A stretch of DNA of 64,000 nt from Octopus vulgaris (taxonomy: Eukaryota): assembly GCA_951406725.2 (NCBI GenBank), contig OX597814.1:99510001-99574000 (forward strand), in the 5' to 3' direction. Position numbers and translations under genes: made by a program. Below the pieces are notes generated by a model, which was not told the origin of the DNA, made no database searches, and worked only from the letters and a program-made list of their open reading frames with translations. Shown piece after piece: positions 640-64,000 of the stretch (within the stretch, counting starts at the first letter, position 1; each line of letters starts with the position of its first letter).

Positions 640-2990
640 TATTTGGTCTTTAGTCATTTCGCTTCATCTGAGAAATTCTAACTACCCTTTTCTCGGCCTT
701 TTTTCTTTGCCGGGTGGACTCTAGCACGTTACCTAGACCCTCTATCATGTAACAAGAGCATGTACTTGCTTCACTAAGAGTTAAGTCAAGAGCTACTGAC
801 TTGTTGTGGGTAATATGTTGAAGGCGTTGGCAGTCCCTCTCGTAGCTGAAAAAGCCCGATTCTGGAGGCATGTGTTCGATTACATTGAGAGCAGAAAAGA
901 GGGCTCCGACGAAGTTGAGCTCGTCTAGGATTTTGCTGACTTACCTTGAGCTGCCTCCGCTTGTTATCGCGAAGTATAGTCCGCTTATCCTCAAAATGCT
1001 GCGTACTAGTTTTGACCATAATACCCCTCCAGGTAGTACGGTCTGTGGCCAGTGTTTCAAGTTCAACAGGGGAAATGTTGCAGAGCTTCAGGGATTTCTT
1101 GAGATGATCTTCATATTGCTTCTTTGGACGACAAAAGAAACAATACCCTCTGCTAACTCCACCAAAACGACAATCTTGGGTATACGGTTTTCCCGCATCC
1201 TGATAACATTCCCACCCAGTGCAGTTGACGTTCGAGTATCAATTTCGATCGACTCCGGATCTCCGTATGTGCGATCTTGTCCTTCTAGGTCTCATGAAGA
1301 ATGCACTGGAGACAGAGGATATGAAAAGATTCGAGGAGATTGACATGACGACAATAAAGCATCCAGGTTTCTGAGGTATACAGAAGCTTAGAAACCACAA
1401 CAGCACGATAAACCTCGATTTTCGTGGAGAGATTCAGATCTCGATGAAGGAAGACCCTATCCTTTAGACGTCCAAAAGCGTAGGAGGCAAGGTGGATACG
1501 ATTCTGACCCCATTACTTGAAATGATGCTACACAAATAGGTGAATTTCTCGGTGATCGTCTTGGATCGAAAGAGTCACAGGGGGTGAACCATTTTTAGCA
1601 CGTTGAAGGATCTCTATTTTCTTGGTGTTGACCTGGAGTCCAGCCCGACGATAGGCGATTCACACAACGTCTAGGTTCTGCTGAAGGCTAGCTGGTTCGT
1701 GAGCGAGAGCTTCGCAGTTATCGGCATACTGTAATTCGAAGGGAGTAGTGGACTGAGTCATTGTTCGCGATTTTAGTCTCCTTATGTTGAAGAGACTGCC
1801 ATTGTAGCGATATCGAATTGGAATGCCATCTTCGGGGTTGAGGTCGTAGCGAGATAGTAAGGTCACAGCCACAAGGAACACATTGAAAAAGACAGGGGTC
1901 AGGACACAGCCTTGTTTAACTCCGACTTGAACGTTGAAGTAGTTAGACTGATCACCACCCAATGTCACACGTGCTTGCATGCCGTCATGGAACTGACATA
2001 GCATGGCAAGAAGCTTAGGAGGACATCCATGCCTCTGCAGGACATTCCATAGTAGTGGGCGGCTAATAGTATCAAAAACCTTAGTTACGTCAATAAAGAC
2101 GAACGAGACATCACACTGTTGTTCTTGGGCACTTCTTTAATAGGAGGCGATGACGAAGACCATGTCGATAGTACTGCGGTTAGCTCTAAAACCGTATTGA
2201 GACCCTGTGAGGATTCCTTCAACGAAGTGGCCAAGAAGTCGAATGAGCAGGACGCGTGCCAAGATATTTCCTACAACATTCAGGATTGAAATACTACTGC
2301 TGTTGTTGCAGTCTGAGCAATCTCCCTTCTTCTTCAAGATGGTGATTATGTCTGCGTGTTTCCAGCGTTGAGGGATCAACACACTTTTCGAACAGTAGAG
2401 GATAGTCTGGTGAATACGCTGGACAAGAGCAGGACCACCATATTTATAGATCTCCCCCGACACACCATCTGATCTAGGTGATTTCCTGTGTTTTTTAAGT
2501 AGGAGAGAGCTGTACGAATTTCCATGAGGGGGGGGGCGTAAAGTACCCAGCTCAAGGAGATGGGGGAGCTCATCAGTTAGTGTGGTGTCTGTAGGATTTA
2601 TCTTGTTCAACAAGGAGCTGAAATGTTCTGCCCATCTCTCAGGGATCTGGGTATTTTCCTTGTTGAGAGTGTTGCCGTCTGGAGATCGTATCGGATTGAT
2701 ATGACTGGAGGATCGACCGTACATCGATTTGGTTGCAGTGAAGAACTCGTGGATCTTATTTTCATCCATAAAACGTTGAATTTCTGCAGCTTTGTTCTTC
2801 CAATTCTGGACGTGTGCGTATGACCTGCTCGAGAGGTAGGCATCATCAACCCGGTTTTTACTTCTGAGACGAGGGAGGATCTCATCAGCAGATTCATCAA
2901 ACCAGTCAGGATTACGACGTCTAGTGTGTCCTAGTTGTTCGGTTGCAGGCAGAGTCTTCTTGAAAGTTTTAGTAACTTCTCTGCTGAAGT
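640..2990 (-). mobile_element. Degenerate RTE-clade LINE (RT domain and C-terminus), frameshifted
   Basis: Minus-strand ORFs 2137-2769 (KSPRSDG, KKGDCSDCNN, SQYGFRANRSTIDMVF), 1660-2004 (GVKQGCVLTPVFFN, LQYADN) and 786-1019 (CSQCNRTHASRIGLF, an RTE-type C-terminal motif). Boundaries approximate. Confidence 0.9.
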
Positions 2991-3095
2991 AGGAACAACA
3001 TGTTCTTTGTGCATCTCTTTAACATCTTGGAGATTTTAGGTATAATTATACAAATGTCTCCATCTGTTCTAATTTAATTAAATTCTATGTCTTTG

Positions 3096-11699: not shown

Positions 11700-12410
11700 T
11701 ATTGTAGGGGTTAGTTTCAAAATGCTGGTCTGGTAGAGCCTTTAGATGTGGGTTGACGGTATATTTCGTTTAAAGCAATGTCAAAATTATTTACTAGAAC
11801 CTTCTAGAATATTCCATGTGTAGATTATTACATATTTCTCGCGTCTTCCTTCCTGTGAGTAAAAGCGTAGCTTTTCATCATCTTCCTGTAATTATCTGCT
11901 ACATTGTTGCAATCATTTTAGTGTAATAACATTGGATCGCTCTGAGCTCTGCTGTTAATGTAGCACTATATGGTGACAACAACTGGGAGCAATTGTCCAG
12001 GCGGTTGCCCATAATTGTTTTCCACAGGGTCGACATGACTTCTTGGTCTCTTGCCCTAAAGGAATTTAGTGTTCATCCTATCACTTGTCTGCACTTTGTT
12101 GTCATCTTGGTAATGTGCATATGAAATGATGCATCATTATATTGTGATTCTCTGTCTCTTAATATCTGTAATTCTGTAATTGCAATGCCTTCGGGTCCTA
12201 AATATTCAGACCTTGGTGCATTTGTGGGTTGATAGCGCAGTGATTGGAATTTTCCAGCATTAAACCGAATGGGACGTAAATGCAATAAACCCACTTGTTT
12301 ATTGTATTTACGTCCCACGGTAAGATTGTGAAATCGTTAGGATTCTTTATTGTCTGTGATAATTTTCTATCAGAAGCTATGCTGATGATACTAAATTATT
12401 ACAGGCAATA
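11700..12410 (-). mobile_element. Degenerate CR1-like LINE 3' fragment with a short 5' inversion
   Basis: Minus-strand translation FNAGKFQSLRY..NDASFHMHITKMTTKCRQ..LDNCSQL..RREKY. The plus strand at ~12376-12410 encodes an inverted SYADDTKLLQAI. Confidence 0.75.
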
Positions 12411-12724
12411 GGTTGTTTGAGTATTGAAACCATGGTACGTAGGTAATCATTTTTTATTTTGTATATTTTCATTTGTTTTGATCACTTTTACATTTTGGTG
12501 TTTTGCTGAGATTTTTCTTAAGAACACACTCTTCGTGGTAATGGCGATTTGAAGTCTATGTTTAGCATATTAAGTATCAACTTTAGTGGTCATTCCTCTT
12601 AATTTTGTATGTAACATACTTTTTAATCTTCGGATTTTAAAAAATATGCTAAGCCACTGGTTTTAATTGATTAATATCAATTTCTACCCTTATTATTTAA
12701 TTTTACATACATATGTATATATAT

Positions 12725-13190
12725 GTACGACGTGAAGGCAAAAATTACACGCACTTTCACCATAACATATCTTTATTATTGCTACAATGCCTTCTGCGCA
12801 TGCGTGCTTATAGTTGGTATTATTGTGGTCACATAATCGAAATTTGAGCCTGATCACGTTATTTTTCATTCTGGCTTTACAGTGTAAGCATGACCACTCC
12901 ACTATCAATGTGCACCAAAGAAGAGCAACGAGCAGTGTTTCGATTTCTGTGGAAAAGGGTTGTACGATCAACAGTTCAAGATACAGCAATTCGCACCAAA
13001 CGCGGAACCCTATTGTCGAAGAAACTTTTGTTGTTGCATGACGATGCACACCCACACACGGCTGCCCATACCGTTGAAACCATTAACCAATTGGGTCTTG
13101 AGGTGCTAGAACACCCTGCTTACAGCCCAGATCTCGTCCCTTGTGACTATCGTATCTCTGGATCGCTCAAAGATGGTTTACGAGGTATTA
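12725..13190 (+). mobile_element. Internally deleted mariner (Tc1/mariner) transposase remnant
   Basis: ORF 12890-13225 contains LLLHDDAHPH (HDNARPH motif) and EHPAYSPDLVPCDY (YSPDLAPxD motif). Confidence 0.9.
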
Positions 13191-13600
13191 GACAGTTTAA
13201 GCATATATTCATTAAATTTGGCTGAAATTGATCGATGGGCGTTTAGCCCAATCGGATGCGCAAGGATTCGTGTAAGCATTGATTTGTTGGTTCGATTCTG
13301 GCTATGAATAGCTTATAATTTTCTGTAATTTGTTTGTATTTAAAAATTGTCGCTATGATATATCATAATACAGTTATTATTATACTATGATTCATCTATG
13401 ATTCAGCCTTTCTGGTTTGTATACAAACATTAGACAGTATAAGTATATATTCATTAAAATTTGGCTGAAATTATTGGATGAGCATTTATCCCAATCGGAT
13501 GTGCAAGGAGCCGCGTAAGCGTTGATTTTTGGGTTTGATTTTAGCTGGATTAGCTCATCATTTTTCGGTCATTTGTTTGTATTTAAAAAAATTGTCACTT
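13187..13600 (+). repeat. Diverged tandem duplication, unit ~243 bp
   Basis: ATTAGACAGT..CATTAAA(A)TTTGGCTGAAATT..CCCAATCGGATG repeats at ~13187 and ~13429. A related segment occurs at ~15465-15560. Confidence 0.8.
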
Positions 13601-16007: not shown

Positions 16008-16067
16008 GAACTACACGTGTTTCAGTATTGGAAGATTACAATATATATACATATACACTACTGTATA

Positions 16068-16122
<55 letters not shown>

Positions 16123-16171
16123 GTATATGCAATCGTCAGATTTACAATTATTCCAACACATCTTCAGGTTC
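16008..16171 (-). ncRNA. Type I hammerhead motif with a (TA)n microsatellite inside loop II
   Basis: Minus strand GAAC-CUGAAGA-U-GUGUUGGAA-[loop]-UUCCAAUAC-U-GAAAC-ACGU-GUA-GUUC. Helix I GAAC/GUUC, 9-bp stem II, palindromic loop III. Confidence 0.7.
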
Positions 16172-16776: not shown

Positions 16777-16799
16777 CACACACACATACACACTCATAA

Positions 16800-17175
16800 A
16801 GAATAAGGAGAAAATGGAGAGGTAATTACTAAAATTATTTATTAATTATAAAATATGACATCTCTGACAGCTGTTTCGTTTCAGAAATCTTTAGATGAAT
16901 TAATTTACAAAATTAAAATCATTATAAGATGAATCTCTTCAGAGGTAGTACAGACATACCGATTAGAAATATATTTTGAGATAACGGCTATAAATCGTCA
17001 ACATGTATTTCTAATCGATATGTCTTTACTATCTCGGAAGTGATTCATCTAATAATGATTTTAATTTTATCAATTAATTATCTAAAGATTTGTGAATCGA
17101 AACAACTGTCAGAGATGTTGTCATATTCTATAATTAATAATATTATTAATTACATTTCCATTTTCTCCTTATTCT
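16800..17175. mobile_element. Foldback element (~170-bp imperfect arms), each arm carrying a hammerhead motif
   Basis: Ends are GAATAAGGAGAAAATGG and CCATTTTCTCCTTATTC. Left arm, minus strand: CUGAAGA-GAUUCA..UGAAAC-GAAAC-AGCU-GUC. Right arm, plus strand: CGGAAGU-GAUUCA..UGAAUC-GAAAC-AACU-GUC. Confidence 0.8.
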
Positions 17176-17399
17176 GTAAACATTTAAAAATATAGGTACC
17201 ACAGTTTATATGGTTACCTTATAGCTGAACTTGCTAGAGATTGGAAACTAACCAGTATTTTCGTTGGATTTATGATTTCTTAATGAGGTTTATTACCTTT
17301 ACTTTATATACATACATACATATATATCACTACTACTTTATTATCTCCCTTCTTCCTAGCTCTCTTGTCTGACCCCTCTGTCCGGCAATGGCGATGATA

Positions 17400-22486: not shown

Positions 22487-22895
22487 AACTGGCAGAAACG
22501 TTAGCACGCTGGGCGAAATGTTTAGCGGTATTCTGTCTGCCGCTACGTTCTGAGTTCAAATTCCGCCGAGGTCGACTTTACCTTTCATCCTTTCAGGGTC
22601 GATTAAATAAGTACCAGTTACGCACTGGGGTCGATATAATCGACTTAATCTGTTTGTCTGTCCTTGTTTGTCCTCTCTGTGTTTAGCCCCTTGTGGGTAG
22701 TAAAGAAATAGGTATTTCGTCTGCCGCTACGTTCTGAGTTCAAATTCCGCCGAGGTCGACTTTGCTTTTAATCCTTTCGGGATCGATAAATTAAGTACCT
22801 GTTACGCACTGGGGTCGATCTAATCGACTTAATCCGTTTGTCTGTCCTTGTTTCTCCCTTCTTTGTTTAGCCCCTCGTGGGCGATAAAGAAATAA
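22487..22895 (+). mobile_element. Head-to-tail dimer of SINE family A
   Basis: First unit has the A and B boxes. The second starts at the junction AAAGAAATA|GGTATTTCGTCT and lacks the A box. Confidence 0.9.
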
Positions 22896-25369: not shown

Positions 25370-25762
25370 AATATTCTTTTCTACTCTAGGCAGTAGGCCC
25401 GAAATTTTGGGGGAGGGAGCCAGTCGATTAGAGTGACCTCAGTATGCAACTGGTACTTAATTTATCGACCCCGAAAGGCAAAGTCGACCTCGGAAGAATT
25501 TGAACTCAGAACGTAAATACAGACGAAATACCTATTTCTTTACTACCCACAAGGGGCTAAACACAGAGAGGACAAACAAGGACAGACAAACGGATTAAGT
25601 CGATTACATCGACCCGAGTGCGTAACTGGTACTTAATTTATCGACCCCGAAAGGATGAAAGGCAAAGTCAACCTCGGCGGAATTTGAACTCAGAACGTAA
25701 CGGCAGACGAAATACGGCTACGCATTTCGCCCGGCGTGCTAACGTTTTTGCCAGCTCGCCGA
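25370..25762 (-). mobile_element. Head-to-tail dimer of SINE family A
   Basis: Same junction as 22487-22895 in reverse (GACGAAATACC|TATTTCTTT at ~25522-25541). Confidence 0.9.
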
Positions 25763-34466: not shown

Positions 34467-37341
34467 TAGTTTTATTTTTATAGCGTGCTTTCACTTCACT
34501 ACCGGGCGCAGCTCTGTGTGCCTTAGGTATGTGCTGTGATTTGTTGTGATGCTCTGATGGTTATTGTAAGGAAAGTGTTCTGCGTAGGATGTGTGCAGTG
34601 CCTAGTAGTGCAATTTTCTGTATGTTATATGTGTTTGTAAGTCCTGGTGCTTTTGATATGTATTTGTCTGAATATTTTTTTATCATGCCTAATGCACCTC
34701 CTATGATAGGAATTGTTTCTGTTTTTAGATTCCACATTCTAGTTACCTCTATTTTCAGGTCTTTGTATTTTGAGAGTTTCTCCATTTCTTTTAGAGACAC
34801 GTTGTCATCTGCCGGTATTGATACATCAATTAGAAAGCATTTTTTTCTTCATGATCTCTGACAACTATATCTATCTGTTGGCCTTAATTTTTCTATCTGT
34901 GTGTATCGGCATATCCCAGAGTATGGTTGCTTTCTCGTTTTCTGTGACCTTTTCTGGTGTGTGCGTATGCCATCTTTTTTCTGTTGTTATTCCATAATGT
35001 TGGCATAGCTTCCAGTGTATGTAGGTTCCAACTCTGTCATGTCTGTGAATATATTCCTTCTTAGCCAGGACTGGGCAGCCAGAGATAATATGATTTATTG
35101 TTTCTTGTTCATCTCCACATATTCTGCAGTTACTTGTTATATTTCTTCTCATTACATGCTTTTGGTAATTTCTGGTGGGAAAGCTTTGGTCTTGTGCTGC
35201 AATTAAAAATCCCTCTGTCTCTGCTTTGAGTCCTGAGCTTCTCAACCATTGCTGGGATTTTTCTTTCTCTATTTCTTTTGCGTTTAGTTTAATCCAGTAT
35301 TTACCATGAAGGGGATTTTCTTGCCATCGTTTTATCATGGTTCGTTGCTGTTCTATTTTTAGTTTGGATTTCATTTGTTTTATAGCTTTTGTTGTTTCTT
35401 CTTCTTCTTCTTCTTCTTCTTCTTCTTCTTCTTCTTCTTCTTCTTCTTCTTCTTCTTCTTCTTCTTCTTCTTCTTCTTCTTCTTCTTCTTCTTCTTCTTC
35501 TTCTTCTTCTTCTTCTTCTTCTTCTTCTTCTTCTTCTTCTTCTTCTTCTTCATATTTATGATTTCTTGTTTGTATTTGTCAGCTTCCTTAAATACTGAGA
35601 ACAGATTTTGTTTTGCTCGTGTTTTGCCGCTATTTGTATCAGTTTTCCTTCCTTCTGAAGTAGATATTTTTGTAGTCCTATGGTGGTTATTTTATAGTAG
35701 TTTTCCAGTTGTATAAGGCCTCTACCACCATCTATACGTTGTATATATAGTCTTTCTATGTCAGATTTTGGGTGATGCATCCTAGATCCTGTCATTATTT
35801 TTCTTGTTTTCCTATCTATTTTGGTCAGTTCATTTAGTGTCCAGTTAAGGATATTGTAGCTGTAACTTATAACTGGGACAGCTAAAGTGTTAATACCTAT
35901 TATCTTGTTTTTAGCATTAAGCTCTGTTTTTAGTATTGATCTAACTCGTCTATAATATTCTTTTTTTTATTTTCTCTTTCATTTGTGTGTGTTGTGTCTT
36001 ATCTAGTTCATGGATTCCTAAGTATTTGTAAGTTTGGCTTTGGTCTAATTCTTTTATTTCATTGGTTTTATCTAGTGTGATGTTGCTACTCTTAACTAGT
36101 TTTCCTGTTTTCAGGGTTACTTTGGCACATTTTCCTAATCCAAATTTCATATCTATTTCTTTGGTAAATCCATGAATTGTCTTTAATAGTGTTTCCAGCT
36201 GTTTGTCATTTGCAGCGTATAGTTTTAGGTCATCCATATATAAAAGGTAGCTGATCGTTTTGCCATAACATTTATATCCGCATCCAGTTCTATTTAGCAT
36301 ATCAGATAGAGGTGACAGTGCCAAGCAGAAAAGGAGTGGAGAGAGCGTGTCTCCCTGGAATATTCCTCTTCTAATGGGGATGGCTTTGGTTTTCATGAGT
36401 CCCTCTTTTGTTTGGAGCTGTAGCACTGTTTGCCATTTATTCATAGAGTGCCCTATGAATTTTATAATTGTTGGTGCTACTTTGTTAATGGCTAGTGTTT
36501 CGAGGATCCATGTGTGGGGGATGCTATCAAATGCCCTTTCTATGGCTGTCTTCAGTTATGGCTTTATTAATCATTAGTTGATCTTTACAGCCATATGACC
36601 CTTTGCGGCATCCTTTCTGCTCTTCTGGAAACAGGTTGTTTTCGTCCAGGTGCTTGTTCAACCTTTGCGATATCACTGCAGTAAAGGCCTTGAACATTGT
36701 AGGGAGACAGGTTATTGGTCTGTAGTTTTCTGGTTTTGCTGTCTCATTTGATTTAGGAATTAAGATGGTTTTCCCCTTCGTGAGCCATTCAGGCATTGTC
36801 TCTGGCTCTGCTAGTATGTTGTTAAGGTTTTCAGCCAGCTTTTTGTGTATTCCTGTTAGATATTTCAACTAGAAGCTTGGGATCTTGTCATGCCCAGGTG
36901 CCTTCCAGTTGCTTAGTCTTTGCAGTGCCTGGGTGACCTCTTCAGTTGTTATGGGGGTCCAAAGTTGCTCAGATGCTGAGTTTGTTGTTTTAATACTCCT
37001 TTTCTTTTGGTTGTTCGTTTGCCGACCATATTTCTCTCCAGAATTCTTCCACTTCTTCTGCCGTTGGTGCTGTAGTGATTTCTATTTTATTTTTGCCAAG
37101 TTTTTGGTAGAACTTTTTGGGGGTTGGAGTTGAACTTCTTGTTTTGTTCAAAGAAGCGCTTGCGTTTCTCATACCGGCGGATCCTTTGTGCTTTGGCAAG
37201 GATATCTTGCTTCAAATTTTTTTTTTCTCAGGTAAATCTTTTCCTGTGATGTTATATTTGCGGAGTATTTTTGTTTTCTTTTTGTTGCTCAGTAGCATTG
37301 ATTGTCTACTGATTTCATTAAGAATCGACAGATCTCTTCTA

Positions 37342-37502: not shown

Positions 37503-37717
37503 AGGCGGCGAGCGGACAGAAACGTTAGCACGCCGGGCTAAATGCTTAGCGGTATTTCGTCTAACGCTACGTTCGGAGTTCAAATTCCGCAGACGTCGAC
37601 TGCCTTTCATCCTTTAGGGTTCGATAAATTAAGAAACGGTCAAGTACTGGGGTCGATGTAGTGGACTATCCCTCTCCCTACAAATTCCAGGCCTAGTAGA
37701 AAGGATTATTATTATTA
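37503..37717 (+). mobile_element. SINE family A with (ATT)n tail
   Basis: GGCGGCGAGCGGACAGAAACGTTAGCACG..GAGTTCAAATTCCG..AAGGATTATTATTATTA. Confidence 0.9.
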
Positions 37718-39168
37718 CTCGGAGTCTGGTTCGGACCAGATCTCCGGGTAGATAGGAACTCGGAAGAGGCCATGACTAGGGTGACCAAGCTCACCCTGAA
37801 ATGGGCAAAAGGGAAAAGGAAGCTGTCGCTAAAATGCTGGGCGAAAGTAGCGAATGCATATATCGCCTCTGTAGTGGTACTTTGTCTTAAGAAAACTCTA
37901 ACCAGATTGGAGCGCTTACTTTTCCGATTCTTATGGAAGGGTCTGGCTCCGCTGGTCAGAAAATCCATCTGCTGTCAACACACGCACAGTGGTGGTCTTG
38001 GGATGCCAGCCTTGATGATGCGGCGCTACGTCTTGAGGTTGTCGCACCTACAGAAATATCTAAATCACTTCGATGATATGGACGACGAAGATGACGACGA
38101 CGATAACGAAAATGAGGGTGAAATTGTGTGGGCATCTTTCGTGCGACACGTCTTTCCGCAGCACATCTCGTTGACAGAGCTGTAGTCAGGGGTTATAAGG
38201 TTAGACGTTTGGCATCTAGATTGCTGCCAGGAGCTCACTGCCCAAAACCGTGAGCGGGAAAACAACCCAATAGGAGGCCAGTTGAAGGTATAAGTGATGA
38301 TGGCCTAGAACTGAATCTAGGTATCGACGAGAACAGTTTGAGTATACTCTTCCAGAGGACCTTCGGGTCGAAGATCATGGACAATTTCCAAAAGCCTTTG
38401 GCTTGACAGTGCTACAGAGGGCATTGCCCGTTCGAGACCAGCGCTTCAGGCATGGAAATGCCAACAGCCGAATCTGCTTGAGATGCTTGCAAGAAGACGA
38501 AACCGTTCTTCATGCAATAATTCAGTGTCCGTGCATTAGAGAGTTGTGGGATTGTGTGGAGCAGCTGCTGTCGCGTGTAAGGCATATTAAGCTGTCTGCC
38601 AACTGTATAGTGAAAAGTCGACACACCACCTTCCCTAAGCAGAGAAGGTAGACAAATCTTTCTCTGCTTAGTGGCTGTAGCAAAAGAGGCTCTGTAGTGG
38701 ACCCGTCTGAAAGGTTTGAAGACAAGTACATTCCTATATGGTCAAGTCATCATCAGTTTCTTCAAATATCGTTTGAAGAGGAAAGTGAGGGTAGGGAGGG
38801 AGGTGCTGCCTTCTAGTGTGTTTATCAAAAGGTGAACAATAGTGACAAGACTGGTGAGACTGAATGAATCTACTCTGAATATGCTTTTCTAAGCAAGAGG
38901 AAAGGAACTGAAAGAGGGAAAGTTTTCGCGAGGTTTACCCCGGATTACTCTTGGTGGTCTGTCTCACTATTGGTGATTCTAGTTGTTTGTTTATTTATTT
39001 ATTTATTATTTCTCTACTTTCTAATATATATCCTCTGTTACATCCTTTAATGTGGTAGTATCTCCTCGATTGATGGTAGCCCCATATGTTTTTGTATTAT
39101 TCATGTGCTGTAACTCGTCCTTTGATATTATCCACCATGTCTTGGGCTCTTGAGGCCAATAAAGAAAA
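37718..39168 (+). mobile_element. 5'-truncated Tx1-like (L1 group) LINE
   Basis: LERLLFRFLWKG..GGLGMP and the zf-RVT-like RALPVRD..CLRCLQEDETVLHAIIQC. The 3' UTR ends AATAAAGAAAA, followed by (TGA)n/(ATT)n. Confidence 0.85.
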
Positions 39169-55879: not shown

Positions 55880-56625
55880 AGGACCTTTACCTTCTGACCG
55901 ACAGATTTGAAAAATAATTTTTTGTAACAAAACACTTTCAAACTTCGGACACTGGTAGAACGTGTCGTATAAAACATCTTTTACTCTTAGCGTTTTGAGA
56001 AAAGCTTATATTTAGGAAGTTATTTCACGTTAAAGTTGTAGTATTTCGGTAATTTTAACCAACCAATGACGTGTATTCAGGTGTATAAAATTACTGCCGT
56101 TGTTTCTCAACAACAACTATCGGCGGTGGATTTTTCGCTTGTCACTTTTATTTATGACATCGTGCATGCGTTTGTACTAGTTTTAGCTTTAAGGTTTTAG
56201 GGTTAGGGTTAGGGTTTTAGGGTTAAGGTGTGAGGGTTATGATTTTAGTGTTAGAGCTAGGGTTAAGTCTTTAGGGTTAGGGTTTTAAGGTTAGGGTTAG
56301 GGTTTTAGGGTTAAGGTTAAGGTTTTAGGGTTAGGGTTAGGGTTGTCATAAATAACAGTGACAAACGAAATATACACCGCCGGAAGTTCTTGCTGACAAG
56401 CAACAACAGTAATTTTATTTAGCTGAATACACGTCATTGATTAATTGAAACTACCGAAATAGGACAACTTTAACGTGAAATTACTTCGTAAATGGAAACT
56501 TTTCGCAAAAGCGCTATGGGTAAAAGATGTTTTATATGACACATTCTACCAGTGTCCGAAGTTTGAAAGTGTTTAGTTACTAAAAAGTATTTTATTAAAT
56601 CTGTCGATCAAAAGGTAAAGATCCC
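55880..56625. mobile_element. MITE with ~280-bp imperfect TIRs and an internal telomeric-repeat core
   Basis: Ends AGGACCTTTACCTTCTGACCGACAGATTT and AAATCTGTCGATCAAAAGGTAAAGATCCC. Flanks AGACTG/AGACTT are a probable 6-bp TSD. TTAGGG/TTTTAGGG repeats at ~56180-56345. Confidence 0.9.
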
Positions 56626-60554: not shown

Positions 60555-60725
60555 CGTTTTACTTGTTTCGAGCATGTGACTGCAGACATACTGGAGCACA
60601 CCTTTTAGTCGAATAAGTCGACCCCATAATTTATTCTATGTAAGCCTAGTACTTATTCTATCGGAGTGTTTTGCCAAACGGCTAAGTTACGGGGACGTAA
60701 ACACAGCAAAATCAGTTGTCAAGCG
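60555..60725 (-). mobile_element. SINE family B, 3' part
   Basis: TTTTACTTGTTTC..CTGGAGCAC..GTACTTATTCTATCGG..GTTGTCAAGCG. Confidence 0.8.
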
Positions 60726-60774
60726 AAGTGTACATTTAAACACAAAAGAGGTATCCATCATAGAACTACCAAGA

Positions 60775-60817
<43 letters not shown>

Positions 60818-60967
60818 AAAATATACACTAATAAGGATCTTTAAGTGCGATGATAGCATCATTAGACCATTTTAGCTCTTATTTCTAGCAATATAGGTGT
60901 TTCTAACACCTTAGTCACATGTAGTGACAATTTTAATTCTCCTCATACACACACAGGCACACACACA

Positions 60968-61040
<73 letters not shown>

Positions 61041-61611
61041 GTATATATGTGTGTGTGTATGTATGTATGTATTAAACTACAAGTCAGGATAAACCTCAGA
61101 GGGATAGAAATATCGCTTGAATATTTTATAATATAGGAACACCACACGCATATATTACTATTATGAAAACCACGAAAGAAGATGGAAATAAGATTAATAC
61201 AAATTTATTTATTAATACGTTGACAAGACCTAAAATTCTTTCAGCTCATCGCTTATAGTATAAAATCAATCAAATTAAATTAAATCAATTTGGTTATTTA
61301 TTATAAACCAGAATATCATCAGAAAGAACGTACAAAGAAATTTATACATATCATATTGAAAACATAATGAAAACATTAAATAATCAAATAGGAAAAATGC
61401 AGTGTACCATTAAGATTAATATGTAATGTAAAAATATATACAGTTATAAAAATAGTTATTGTCATAAATTAATATAAAAAAACAATAATGTTACTGCAGA
61501 CATACCCATGCGAAAATACGATAACTTAATTAATTTAGTAAATTAACTATACTTAGTTTTATATCCCTGTGTATGTATGTATGTATGTATGTATGTATGT
61601 ATGTATGTATG

Positions 61612-61682
<71 letters not shown>

Positions 61683-61829
61683 ATATTTCGGAATGGTCAT
61701 ATTTAAACGTATATATATATATATATATATATATGTTCTTAATCATATCAAAGGGAAATGGAAATTAATTAAAAATTCCGTTTACAGTGGCCTAACGTGT
61801 AAAAGTTTTGTCCAAAGACTGTATTAGTC

Positions 61830-62113
61830 ATAAAATACAGTGTACATTTAAACACACGAGGAATCCACTCATGGAATTTAACCCAAGGTGTTCCTGCTGA
61901 TGACGATTTCACATAGAGAGTATATGTGATTTACTTGCTAAACTAAAATCAGAAACCAAATGGTCCTGGAAACTAGATGTTAAAATGTTTTTTATTTTTT
62001 TCATTTCGTTTCTGTCGAATTTTATCCCTAATTTTGTGGTTATGGAACCTAGCTGTTCTTTCTAGCGTGTTGAATCCCACGAGTGGATTTCTCATGTGGT
62101 CAAATGTACACTG

Positions 62114-62120
<7 letters not shown>
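61830..62120 (+). mobile_element. ~290-bp element with ~50-bp imperfect inverted ends enclosing a hammerhead
   Basis: AAATACAGTGTACATTT..GAATCCACTCATGG versus CCACGAGTGGATTT..AAATGTACACTGTATTT. A fragment of the same end occurs at ~60728-60776. Confidence 0.8.
61890..61973 (+). ncRNA. Type I hammerhead ribozyme motif
   Basis: GUUCCUG-CUGAUGA-C-GAUUU-[..]-AAAUC-A-GAAAC-CAAAUG-GUC-CUGGAAAC. Predicted cleavage after 61965. Confidence 0.7.
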
Positions 62121-62157
<37 letters not shown>

Positions 62158-62189
62158 TGTGTATAAGAGTATGTGTACATGAGTATATG

Positions 62190-62248
<59 letters not shown>

Positions 62249-62372
62249 TTAATAAGAGTGAGAGAATTAGATACTAATTTAATAGTATATCTATTCAACA
62301 CCAAGTGGCCCAGTGCTCCGAGAAACCTGGATTATTATAATATTTTATAATATATTATAATATTTTTACAAA

Positions 62373-62769
62373 AATAAATATAAGAGAGTGGTCACTATAT
62401 GGCTCACTCTAGCACTAGTTAATCCAAAAGGTTTCAACCACAAAAATACATGTTTCCCATGAAAGTCAGTACGATTGTTAGCTCACACGAACAGGGCAAA
62501 TAAAAAATAACAAAAATACAGATTATTTTGGGACAATTGTTTCGCTATTAATGAATTAAATGTAATTTTACTTACAAAAAAATCCACTTGTAGCTCCTCA
62601 GCCAAAACTATCTGGATGAAATCCACTCAATCACACGCCAGATTTTACCATAACGATAAATACACGTGTGGTTCAATTGATTTGGGAAACATGTATTTTT
62701 GTGGTTGAAACCTTTTGGATTAACTAGTGCTAGAGTGAGCCATATAGTGACCACTCTCTTATATTTATT
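62373..62769 (-). mobile_element. ~400-bp element with perfect 87-bp inverted repeats enclosing an intact hammerhead
   Basis: 62373-62459 is the exact reverse complement of 62683-62769. Flanks are AT-rich or (TA)n. Confidence 0.92.
62519..62614 (-). ncRNA. Intact type I hammerhead ribozyme
   Basis: CAGAUAGUUUUGG-CUGAGGA-GCUA-[loop]-UAGC-GAAAC-AAUU-GUC^-CCAAAAUAAUCUG. All core nucleotides present; helix I pairs 12 of 13. Confidence 0.88.
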
Positions 62770-63083
62770 ATATATTATATATATATATATATGAAATACC
62801 TAATGGTTTCACTTCGCTAGTCCCATAATTTAATAACATGTCTATTGTTTTGTATATCACCATTTATCGTATTTTGAATAGGTATGTATACATTAACATT
62901 ATTGTTATTTATATTAATTTATGACAATAACTATTTTTATAACTACGTATTTTTATATTATGTATTAACTTTAATGGTGCACTATATTTTTCCGCTTTGA
63001 TTATTTAATGTTTTCCAGTTTGATTATCTAATGTTTCCATTGTGTTTTCATTATGATATATATAAATTTCCTTACTCGTTCTT

Positions 63084-63184
63084 CCCTGATGATATTCTAG
63101 CTTATAATAATTAGCCAAACGGATTTAAAGAAATTAAATTTGATTGACTTTATACTATAAGCAATGAACTGAAACAATTGTAGG
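63084..63184 (+). ncRNA. Type I hammerhead motif (outer right arm)
   Basis: CC-CUGAUGA-UAUUCUAGCUUAUA-[..]-UAUAAGCAAUGAACU-GAAAC-AAUU-GUA^-GG, with palindromic stem III ACAAUUGU. Helix I is short. Confidence 0.6.
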
Positions 63185-63362
63185 TCTTGCGAATGTACTG
63201 ATAAATAAATTTTGTATTCATATTATCTCCATCTTCTATCTTGTTTTTATATATATATATGTATGTGTGTGTATGTGTGTATGTTGTGTGTGCGTGTGTG
63301 TATTTATATATGTATATATATTTATATAAAGATATATATATATATATGAATATATATTATAT

Positions 63363-63425
<63 letters not shown>

Positions 63426-63780
63426 ATGTATCTTTATATTTATATGGGGAAGGTAGTTCTAGATAGAAGTCATGCTCAAATGCATATGCATCAAGGTATT
63501 CTTCAACCCTCTACGTTCTACCAGCCTACATACTGAAACCGACAGGGAAGCGAATGAATGTATGCGTGAATATGCCCTTACTTGGGATTTTAATATTTCA
63601 AACATATCTGGTGTGAGAGCTTTCCTATAATTGCGGGGATAATCTCAAATTAACAATTTTCGCTTAACTATTCTATATATGACACCCTATCTTATTTTTT
63701 ATCTCGTACTCTGAACGCTATCTGCAGATATTTTCCCTGGCCCATGTGTTTTATATTCCTTATTACCTCACTACATTCTC

Positions 63781-63855
<75 letters not shown>

Positions 63856-64000
63856 CATAGAGAGAGAGAGAGAGTGAGAGGGATAGCGCACAGGGCATAT
63901 GAATTTAACATTTAATTAATTCACTGCGTATTCATTGAAACAGCTGTAAAGGATGAATTTTCGATTTGTTGTTAATAATAAACAATTAACTTCCCAATTT

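Follow-up and report, generated by a model that had tools for sequence, protein, structure and literature searches.

A 2-kb foldback with four hammerhead motifs in the Octopus vulgaris genome, probably formed by stacked insertions of Penelope-like retroelements

Introduction

Hammerhead ribozymes are carried by several groups of Penelope-like retroelements (PLEs). In the Hydra clade, as described by Craig et al. (2021, PMC8557442), a type I hammerhead is found close to the 3' end, (TA)n tracts are the targets and, where an inverted 5'-truncated copy is present, a hammerhead lies on both strands. PLE insertions in that account comprise an inverted, 5'-truncated copy, the tail is often present at one end only, and in its supplement Penelope-13_HM, with an inverted 5' copy, has a hammerhead on both strands, while many of the Hydra-clade hammerheads given there have the form CUGAUGA-U...U-GAA. 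The octopus Naiad elements of the same work (Naiad_Obim and Naiad_Ovul) also target (TA)n and form inverted or tandem insertions. For the Poseidon element PAc of Anolis, Frangieh et al. (2024, PMC11167929) report that in vitro both strands of the target are nicked and extended, AT-rich targets being favoured, that two internal starts of reverse transcription (RT), downstream of the hammerhead, define the tail, and that insertion did not require hammerhead cleavage. Moreover, dispersed hammerheads of truncated PLEs have been reported by Cervera and de la Peña (2014, PMC4209133), including dual motifs on opposite strands 100-700 bp apart, with palindromic helix III and weak cleavage as monomers. 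Finally, the metazoan non-LTR retrozymes (PMC7229834; bioRxiv 10.64898/2026.07.22.740005) are described as non-coding, high-copy elements with a type I hammerhead, organised as tandem arrays from which circular RNA is formed.

The locus described here is a foldback of 2 kb within a window of 64 kb, which is the whole stretch of Octopus vulgaris DNA that was analysed. It shares with the Hydra-clade PLEs the (TA)n targets, the 3'-proximal type I hammerhead and the inverted truncated copy with a hammerhead on both strands, and its outer family has their CUGAUGA-U...U-GAA form, but its helix II spacers of 48-78 nt are longer than those of almost all the Hydra motifs listed, six motifs of the window have no match in the supplement, and the 3' end of Hydra-1_Obim differs, by eye, from the window sequence (PMC8557442). 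AT-rich targets, a hammerhead located upstream and a one-sided tail are common to Poseidon PAc and the present locus, although the tail of the former measures 30-40 bp against 93-129 bp for the putative tails here (PMC11167929). The dispersed hammerheads resemble it in their truncated PLE context, opposite-strand pairing and palindromic helix III, but the motifs reported are minimal, whereas those of the foldback combine a complete helix I with a helix II that is long and branched, and they escape detection by Rfam (PMC4209133). Retrozymes are likewise non-coding, high-copy and equipped with a type I hammerhead; unlike their tandem arrays, the window copies are inverted monomers (PMC7229834; bioRxiv 10.64898/2026.07.22.740005). 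The Naiads share the (TA)n targets and the inverted or tandem insertions, but they are described without canonical hammerheads, which conflicts with the canonical motif of the third module described below, and those given in PMC8557442 have no sequence match to the window. As regards the clade, a Neptune type is as possible as a Hydra type. In the freely accessible octopus literature on hammerheads and Penelope elements that was surveyed, these families are not reported; the supplement of PMC7229834 may list cephalopod motifs.

Organisation of the foldback

Masked self-BLAST revealed three pairs of inverted repeats within the foldback (Table 1). The outer pair (61167-61524 and 62864-63247) is identical at 305 of 388 positions with 34 gap columns; the 49 mismatches in 354 aligned columns (30 transitions and 19 transversions) amount to a divergence of 14%. 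The pair of module 2 (61834-61882 and 62069-62117) is identical at 42 of 49 positions, and that of module 3 (62373-62459 and 62683-62769) at all 87. A preliminary description of this DNA, made from the sequence, had reported a 2-kb foldback with four hammerheads, and both the repeat pairs and the four cores are found where it had placed them, one of the cores reading CUGAGGA. It had also considered the inner modules to be unrelated, in agreement with the present comparison, in which whole-module similarity among the three modules was not significant (scores matched by 30, 32 and 149 of 200 shuffles). The outer pair does enclose both modules, but these are neighbours lying side by side and neither is inside the other. 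As for the boundaries, 61830-62120 is close to the 61834-62117 found here, but the third module, given as 62373-62769, extends over at least 62244-62769 according to contig depth.

Table 1. Features of the foldback and its flanks (window positions; strand of the feature)
Positions	Strand	Feature	Basis
61022-61073		TA/TG/TATG microsatellite, left flank; putative target	
61074-61166	-	Putative one-sided tail, 93 bp, adjoining the 3' end of the left arm of the outer pair	by analogy
61167-61524	-	Outer family, left arm: 5'-truncated copy, 3' end to the left	self-BLAST
61231-61322	-	Outer left hammerhead, decayed: CUGAUGA 61322-61316, GAAA 61242-61239, triplet UUA, site 61231	
61525-61567		AT-rich 43-bp piece with small hairpin	
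61568-61734		(TATG)n/(TA)n tracts with 30-bp insert at 61679-61708	
61735-61833	-	99-bp extension past the module 2 left arm; putative tail	inferred
61834-62117	+	Module 2: inverted 49-bp 3'-end copy (61834-61882) and plus-strand truncated copy (61883-62117) ending at (TA)n	
61897-61965	+	Module 2 hammerhead: CUGAUGA, spacer 48 nt, GAAA at 61952, helix III of 3 bp, GUC, site 61965	
62118-62243		(TA)n tracts with TA/TG-rich interruption	
62244-62372	-	Module 3 one-sided extension, 129 bp, same high-copy family	contig depth
62373-62682	-	Module 3 main copy, 5'-truncated at 62682	loose contig ends
62532-62601	-	Module 3 hammerhead: CUGAGGA, spacer 51 nt, GAAA at 62543, triplet GUC, site 62532	
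62683-62769	+	Inverted copy of module 3, 87 bp, without a difference from 62373-62459, ending at (TA)n	
62770-62792		Short TA-rich tract	
62793-63247	+	Outer family, right arm, 3' end abutting (TA)n	family matches from 62807
63086-63182	+	Outer right hammerhead: CUGAUGA-U...U-GAAA, spacer 78 nt, palindromic helix III, GUA, site 63182	
63248-63445		TA/TG microsatellite, right flank; putative target	

The three units follow the same plan. Each consists of two copies of the 3' end of one family, with the 3' ends pointing outward to a microsatellite, which adjoins both ends of each unit; each has an extension of 93-129 bp on one side only, and the predicted hammerhead cleavage sites of the three families lie 64-159 nt from the arm ends. 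Variable 5' truncation together with an inverted copy is present in both the outer family and family 3, the family of module 3. Microhomology is absent from the inversion junction of module 3 (62682/62683). The outer right arm contains a tandem duplication of 23 bp at 62988-63036. The putative tails at 61735-61833 and 62244-62372, both on the minus strand, have the heptamer GGCCACT in common.

Hammerhead motifs

All four cores have the complete set of boxes (CUGANGA...GAAA...UH), three with CUGAUGA and one with CUGAGGA, and all are of type I, their core boxes being 48-78 nt apart. In module 3 the motif is canonical, with G10.1-C11.1, a 2-bp helix III with a palindromic AAUU loop and a long helix I, and it is the only one with three intact helices; the others have mismatches at a helix base. 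In that of module 2, C and A are mismatched (C.A) at the helix II base. The outer right one is A.C at 10.2/11.2, against A-U in most of the family, and the outer left one has G-U wobbles at 15.2/16.2 and 2.1/1.1 (helices I and III). Both outer motifs have a U.U pair at the base of helix II, which is not to be read as decay because it is common in the Hydra-clade PLE hammerheads given in the supplement of PMC8557442 and is reported in the axolotl motif HHR_Amex2 (PMC7229834).

A strict three-helix descriptor was passed by two of the four motifs, those of modules 2 and 3, while 997 of 1000 shuffled sequences gave no match and three gave one. A relaxed descriptor, which is post hoc in that it was written with the motifs already seen, accepted all four, against no match in 1985 of 2000 shuffles and one match in the other 15. 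The folds constrained to the hammerhead are 2.4-4.5 kcal/mol costlier than the free folds. Rfam at the gathering score gave no hammerhead match in the window; among its 44 weak matches in 60900-63500 (E-value threshold) there were likewise no hammerheads, only miRNA matches driven by microsatellites. Only module 3, the youngest, clearly retains an intact fold predicted to be self-cutting.

Families and copy number

Contigs of four sequencing runs (X1, X3, X4 and X5, with three organism labels) were aligned to 62244-63250 at 80% likeness. Relative to a contig of a single locus, median depth reached 15,000-17,000 times over family 3 (62244-62685) and 23-36 times over the outer family arm, where summed contig depth is not equivalent to copy number. 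The ratio between both families was 434-757 in all four runs, and thus the 2-kb unit is not one amplified element, the case which the preliminary description had named as contrary to its own reading.

The bins of 62244-62372 had a depth of 5e4-6e5 in all four runs, so that family 3 covers this stretch and module 3 carries a one-sided extension of 129 bp. Loose contig ends before 62374 resemble the window sequence of the 62320s. At the other side, family-3 copies run past 62682 with different letters in 13, 4, 8 and 5 contigs of the four runs; the window copy is therefore 5'-truncated at this point, where an inverted copy adjoins it. At 62416 the two arms of module 3 carry a letter that is in the minority in the family, which fits a single template. 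One contig of X5 folds back at 62468, a different inversion point. Loose ends before 62625 show other family-3 copies to differ in helix I of the hammerhead, on its 5' strand, and these differences suggest subfamilies. In pattern scans of metagenomes, viral contigs and genome contigs family 3 had no match; matches of an 18-mer at eight metagenome loci were discarded as chance, being alike over just 18-31 bases.

In the outer family, opposite strands are connected, at differing places, in 6 of the 15 joints listed (out of 19), and five of these six were seen in two or three runs; the joint coordinates are blurred, since 7 of the 15 end at 63130-63140, where the window copy has private changes. 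The outer right arm was matched with no differences in X1 and X3, with 6 differences in 167 bases in X4 and with 4 in 155 in X5. If these matches are read as orthologous, the insertion would predate the splits among these organisms. No empty site was visible in the contigs, the aligned stretch starting at the boundary of module 3 and the reads ending at 62760-62802.

Age and order of the insertions

Divergence is equal in the outer pair and in module 2 (49/354 and 7/49; Fisher P=1.0), and it is lower in module 3 than in either the outer pair (P=1.4e-5) or module 2 (P=6e-4). Judged by arm divergence, module 3 is the youngest of the three units, and the outer pair is roughly of the same age as module 2; gene conversion between the arms could alternatively have kept module 3 perfect. 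The decrease in divergence previously proposed, from the two imperfect pairs to the perfect module 3, thus holds, the outer pair and module 2 being equally diverged. As regards the serial insertion at TA tracts that had been proposed, separate insertions at (TA)n are supported, with a depth contrast of 430-760-fold between the families, and no order is indicated for the outer pair and module 2 (P=1.0).

The outer arms are about equally decayed: the left arm has the family-majority letter at 25 of the 27 listed sites where the right arm departs from it, and 25 changes private to the right arm stand against 24 other mismatches, which fall outside the 32 table rows compared (88 rows being beyond those listed). 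Both arms share a minority letter at 63169. At a divergence rate of 0.0036 per million years (PMC13282606), hand arithmetic would date the outer pair to about 20 million years and module 3 to less than about 5 million years.

Predicted consequences at the RNA level

In the predicted folds of a read-through transcript of either strand, 310-321 pairs connect the outer arms and module 3 forms a perfect stem of 87 bp, so that the long dsRNA postulated earlier is predicted on condition that the locus is transcribed. In both strands each outer core is paired with its own antisense copy; locked in this duplex, the two would leave at most one free hammerhead per strand, that of module 2 on the plus strand and that of module 3 on the minus strand. 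As only the latter is fully canonical, the proposal that a transcript could be cut on both strands appears overstated. Differences between the window and the family go in both directions without strand bias, and a fossil signature of A-to-I editing was not seen among them.

It is conceivable, but we regard it as doubtful, that module 3 represents a non-coding family, hitherto undescribed and numbering ~10^4 copies, whose long-helix-II hammerhead is active and missed by Rfam, giving rise to dsRNA that opens itself, and with tails that map two RT starts. If this were true, perfect hairpins would regularly result from young insertions of the module 3 type, the ribozyme lying unpaired with the stem in their loop, the transcribed copies would open themselves into dsRNA with defined ends, so that the genome would have in them a major, self-renewing supply of substrates for ADAR and small RNAs, and the tails of 93-129 bp would reflect two widely spaced RT start sites, one per arm.

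Origin of the foldback

The element class, left unnamed in the preliminary description, is very probably that of the PLEs, in their inverted, truncated insertion form, which recurs in the window. In our view, the foldback was very probably produced by three insertions of hammerhead-bearing, (TA)n-targeting PLEs of unrelated families that piled up at one place, the foldback being a by-product and not a selected structure. PLE membership rests on architecture, since no RT or GIY-YIG endonuclease frame is present in these copies, which are too truncated, and the stretches open upstream of the hammerheads are short. A PNGF-like end at 62793 bears some resemblance to the C-terminus of a GIY-YIG domain and does not enter the argument.

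Following the published PLE biochemistry, the RT/GIY-YIG protein would nick AT-rich DNA on both strands, and reverse transcription would start internally, downstream of the hammerhead, to give two truncated cDNAs that would then be joined head to head; the use of two start sites would leave a tail on one side. The centre of the outer unit may have held TA tracts or grown them later, and modules 2 and 3 would have entered these, module 3 last, the hammerheads being passengers from the RNA processing of the elements. The tails of 93-129 bp, compared with the published 30-40 bp, are a counterpoint to this scheme, and only that of module 3 has been demonstrated to be family sequence, those of the other units being assigned by inference.

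Within this class of elements, we think it reasonably likely that the outer pair arose in one event and that modules 2 and 3 are nested within it. The outer arms could instead be separate insertions, or the result of one event nicking two adjacent tracts of a pre-existing compound microsatellite, with old genomic DNA as the centre, and this we consider possible though distinctly less likely. Such an arrangement without nesting would agree with the microsatellite near both ends of each outer arm (43 and 14 bases separate the arms from the inner microsatellite, a spacing that also fits two insertions), with the equal age of the outer pair and module 2, and with the presence in the centre of bases that have no family match (43 + 30 + 14), the 43-bp and 30-bp pieces being without a confident match to any family within the window. 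On the other hand, the chance that two outward-facing copies of a family of 20-100 copies fall within 1.4 kb is 5e-5 to 1e-3 per genome (assumed size 2.5 Gb); at a depth of only 23-36 times a single locus, independent neighbouring copies of the outer family are very unlikely, and inverted pairs are common in this family. This low copy number, together with the similar decay of the two arms, the minority letter that both arms have at 63169 and the tail at a single end, favours a single outer event. That family 3 is a non-LTR retrozyme, that is, a unit of some 245 bp, non-coding and tandemly repeated, which passes through circular RNA by means of its hammerhead and borrows a PLE RT, seems unlikely to us. 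Its canonical type I hammerhead and its depth would suit such an element, as would one X4 contig in which 62611 is joined back to 62370, since the resulting 245 bp fall inside the range of 170-400 nt given in PMC7229834; but this joint was found in one of the four runs only, at a depth of 109 against ~500,000 for family 3, family sequence goes on beyond the unit on either side, past 62682 upstream and for 129 bp downstream, and the window copy is an inverted monomer with no head-to-tail units at the locus. The joint might also be a trace of the partial tandem copies by which PLEs form their pLTRs.

The perfect 87-bp inverted ends adjoining TA might also be taken for the terminal inverted repeats of MITEs with TA targets and incidental hammerhead-like motifs. 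A fragment at 60727-60776 that appears to follow the left end of module 2 beyond its junction, by ~8 nt, points in the same direction, as the inverted end of module 2 may for this reason be fixed in its family. However, family 3 runs on beyond the left repeat as well as the inner junction, the points of inversion differ among copies (as in the X5 contig), and in every family examined the hammerhead is placed similarly with respect to the 3' end; these sequence comparisons go far towards refuting the MITE reading, which we rate as very improbable overall, in the case of module 3 and of the outer family. Least probable of all, to about the same degree, are selection of the foldback by the host and an artefact in the perfect inner hairpin. 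The pairing predicted for the read-through RNA, and the report that young inverted repeats are typical and preferred ADAR targets in animals (PMC9989829), would be compatible with an editing substrate, an siRNA precursor or a ribozyme-controlled hairpin maintained as a host RNA structure; yet the arms have drifted like neutral DNA, three of the four hammerheads have helix defects, the outer cores are sequestered in duplex, and no host exon was recognised near the foldback (nearby frames judged by eye; 10 of 73 long frames domain-scanned). An assembly or library fold-back would produce complete arm identity within a very high-copy repeat, and 62682/62683 is not bridged by any of the 32 contig pieces listed (out of 4788). 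Nevertheless, the other two pairs are diverged and hence cannot be fold-back artefacts, the right outer arm was matched without differences in X1 and X3, and the anatomy of module 3 shows the same asymmetry as three older units.

Taken as stacked PLE insertions, the locus matters little alone, being a pile of fossil copies in an insertion form that is already known and recurs in the window. What is mildly new are the helix II spacers of 48-78 nt missed by Rfam, the tails of 93-129 bp and a family of ~10^4 copies. Its value is that of a pointer: the genome seems rich in long-helix-II hammerheads that Rfam misses, one family being very high-copy, and the inverted insertions make testable both the supply of dsRNA for editing by PLEs and the priming of the two arms.

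Other units and features of the window

The window is AT-rich, of eukaryotic type and rich in microsatellites, its 64 kb containing 62 tracts of at least (TA)6, and a loose descriptor finds eight hammerhead motifs in it. An un-nested twin of the outer unit is present at 16797-17178, with arms identical at 159 of 178 positions, a spacer of 18 bp and one hammerhead per arm; the unit reaches 17305 by an extension of ~125 bp on the right side only, its minus hammerhead at 16942 reads CUGAAGA, and the first box of the plus copy is mutated. At 16012-16139, on the minus strand, a hammerhead-like motif (CUGACGA-U...U-GAAAC) with palindromic helix III has a (TA)n tract (16070-16121) in the loop of helix II, so such tracts do occur within these elements. 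Another (CUGAUGA-U...U-GAAAC, also with palindromic helix III) lies at 12382-12437 on the plus strand, with hairpins before it at 12270-12317 and 12348-12410. Furthermore, the 3' half of a plus-strand hammerhead (63898-64000, GAAA at 63937, palindromic helix III, ~65% like 17066-17164) begins right behind a TA/GA tract.

The fragment at 60727-60776, which is 85% like the left end of module 2 over 40 bp, is situated between a SINE-like repeat (60557-60724) and (TA)n; this repeat and the microsatellite load would be in keeping with an octopus genome. At 55881-56624 an inverted repeat of 281 bp (85%) surrounds a degenerate telomere-like (TTAGGG)n tract (56189-56344); a convincing hammerhead is absent from it, and it is possibly a non-autonomous DNA transposon. 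Inverted copies of a 184-bp tandem repeat family, 89-91% identical, are found ~2.6 kb apart at 22489-22894 and 25422-25754. In the 10 of 73 long frames that were scanned, the only domains recognised belong to LINE-type retroelements and a DDE transposase. Broken LINE-type elements (Pfam RVT_1 and zf-RVT) and a DDE transposase fragment are present at 786-3018, 34871-36868, 37700-38651 and 12854-13225, the copy at 34871-36868 having tracts of (TTC)n, (ATT)n and (TTA)n within it or at its borders.
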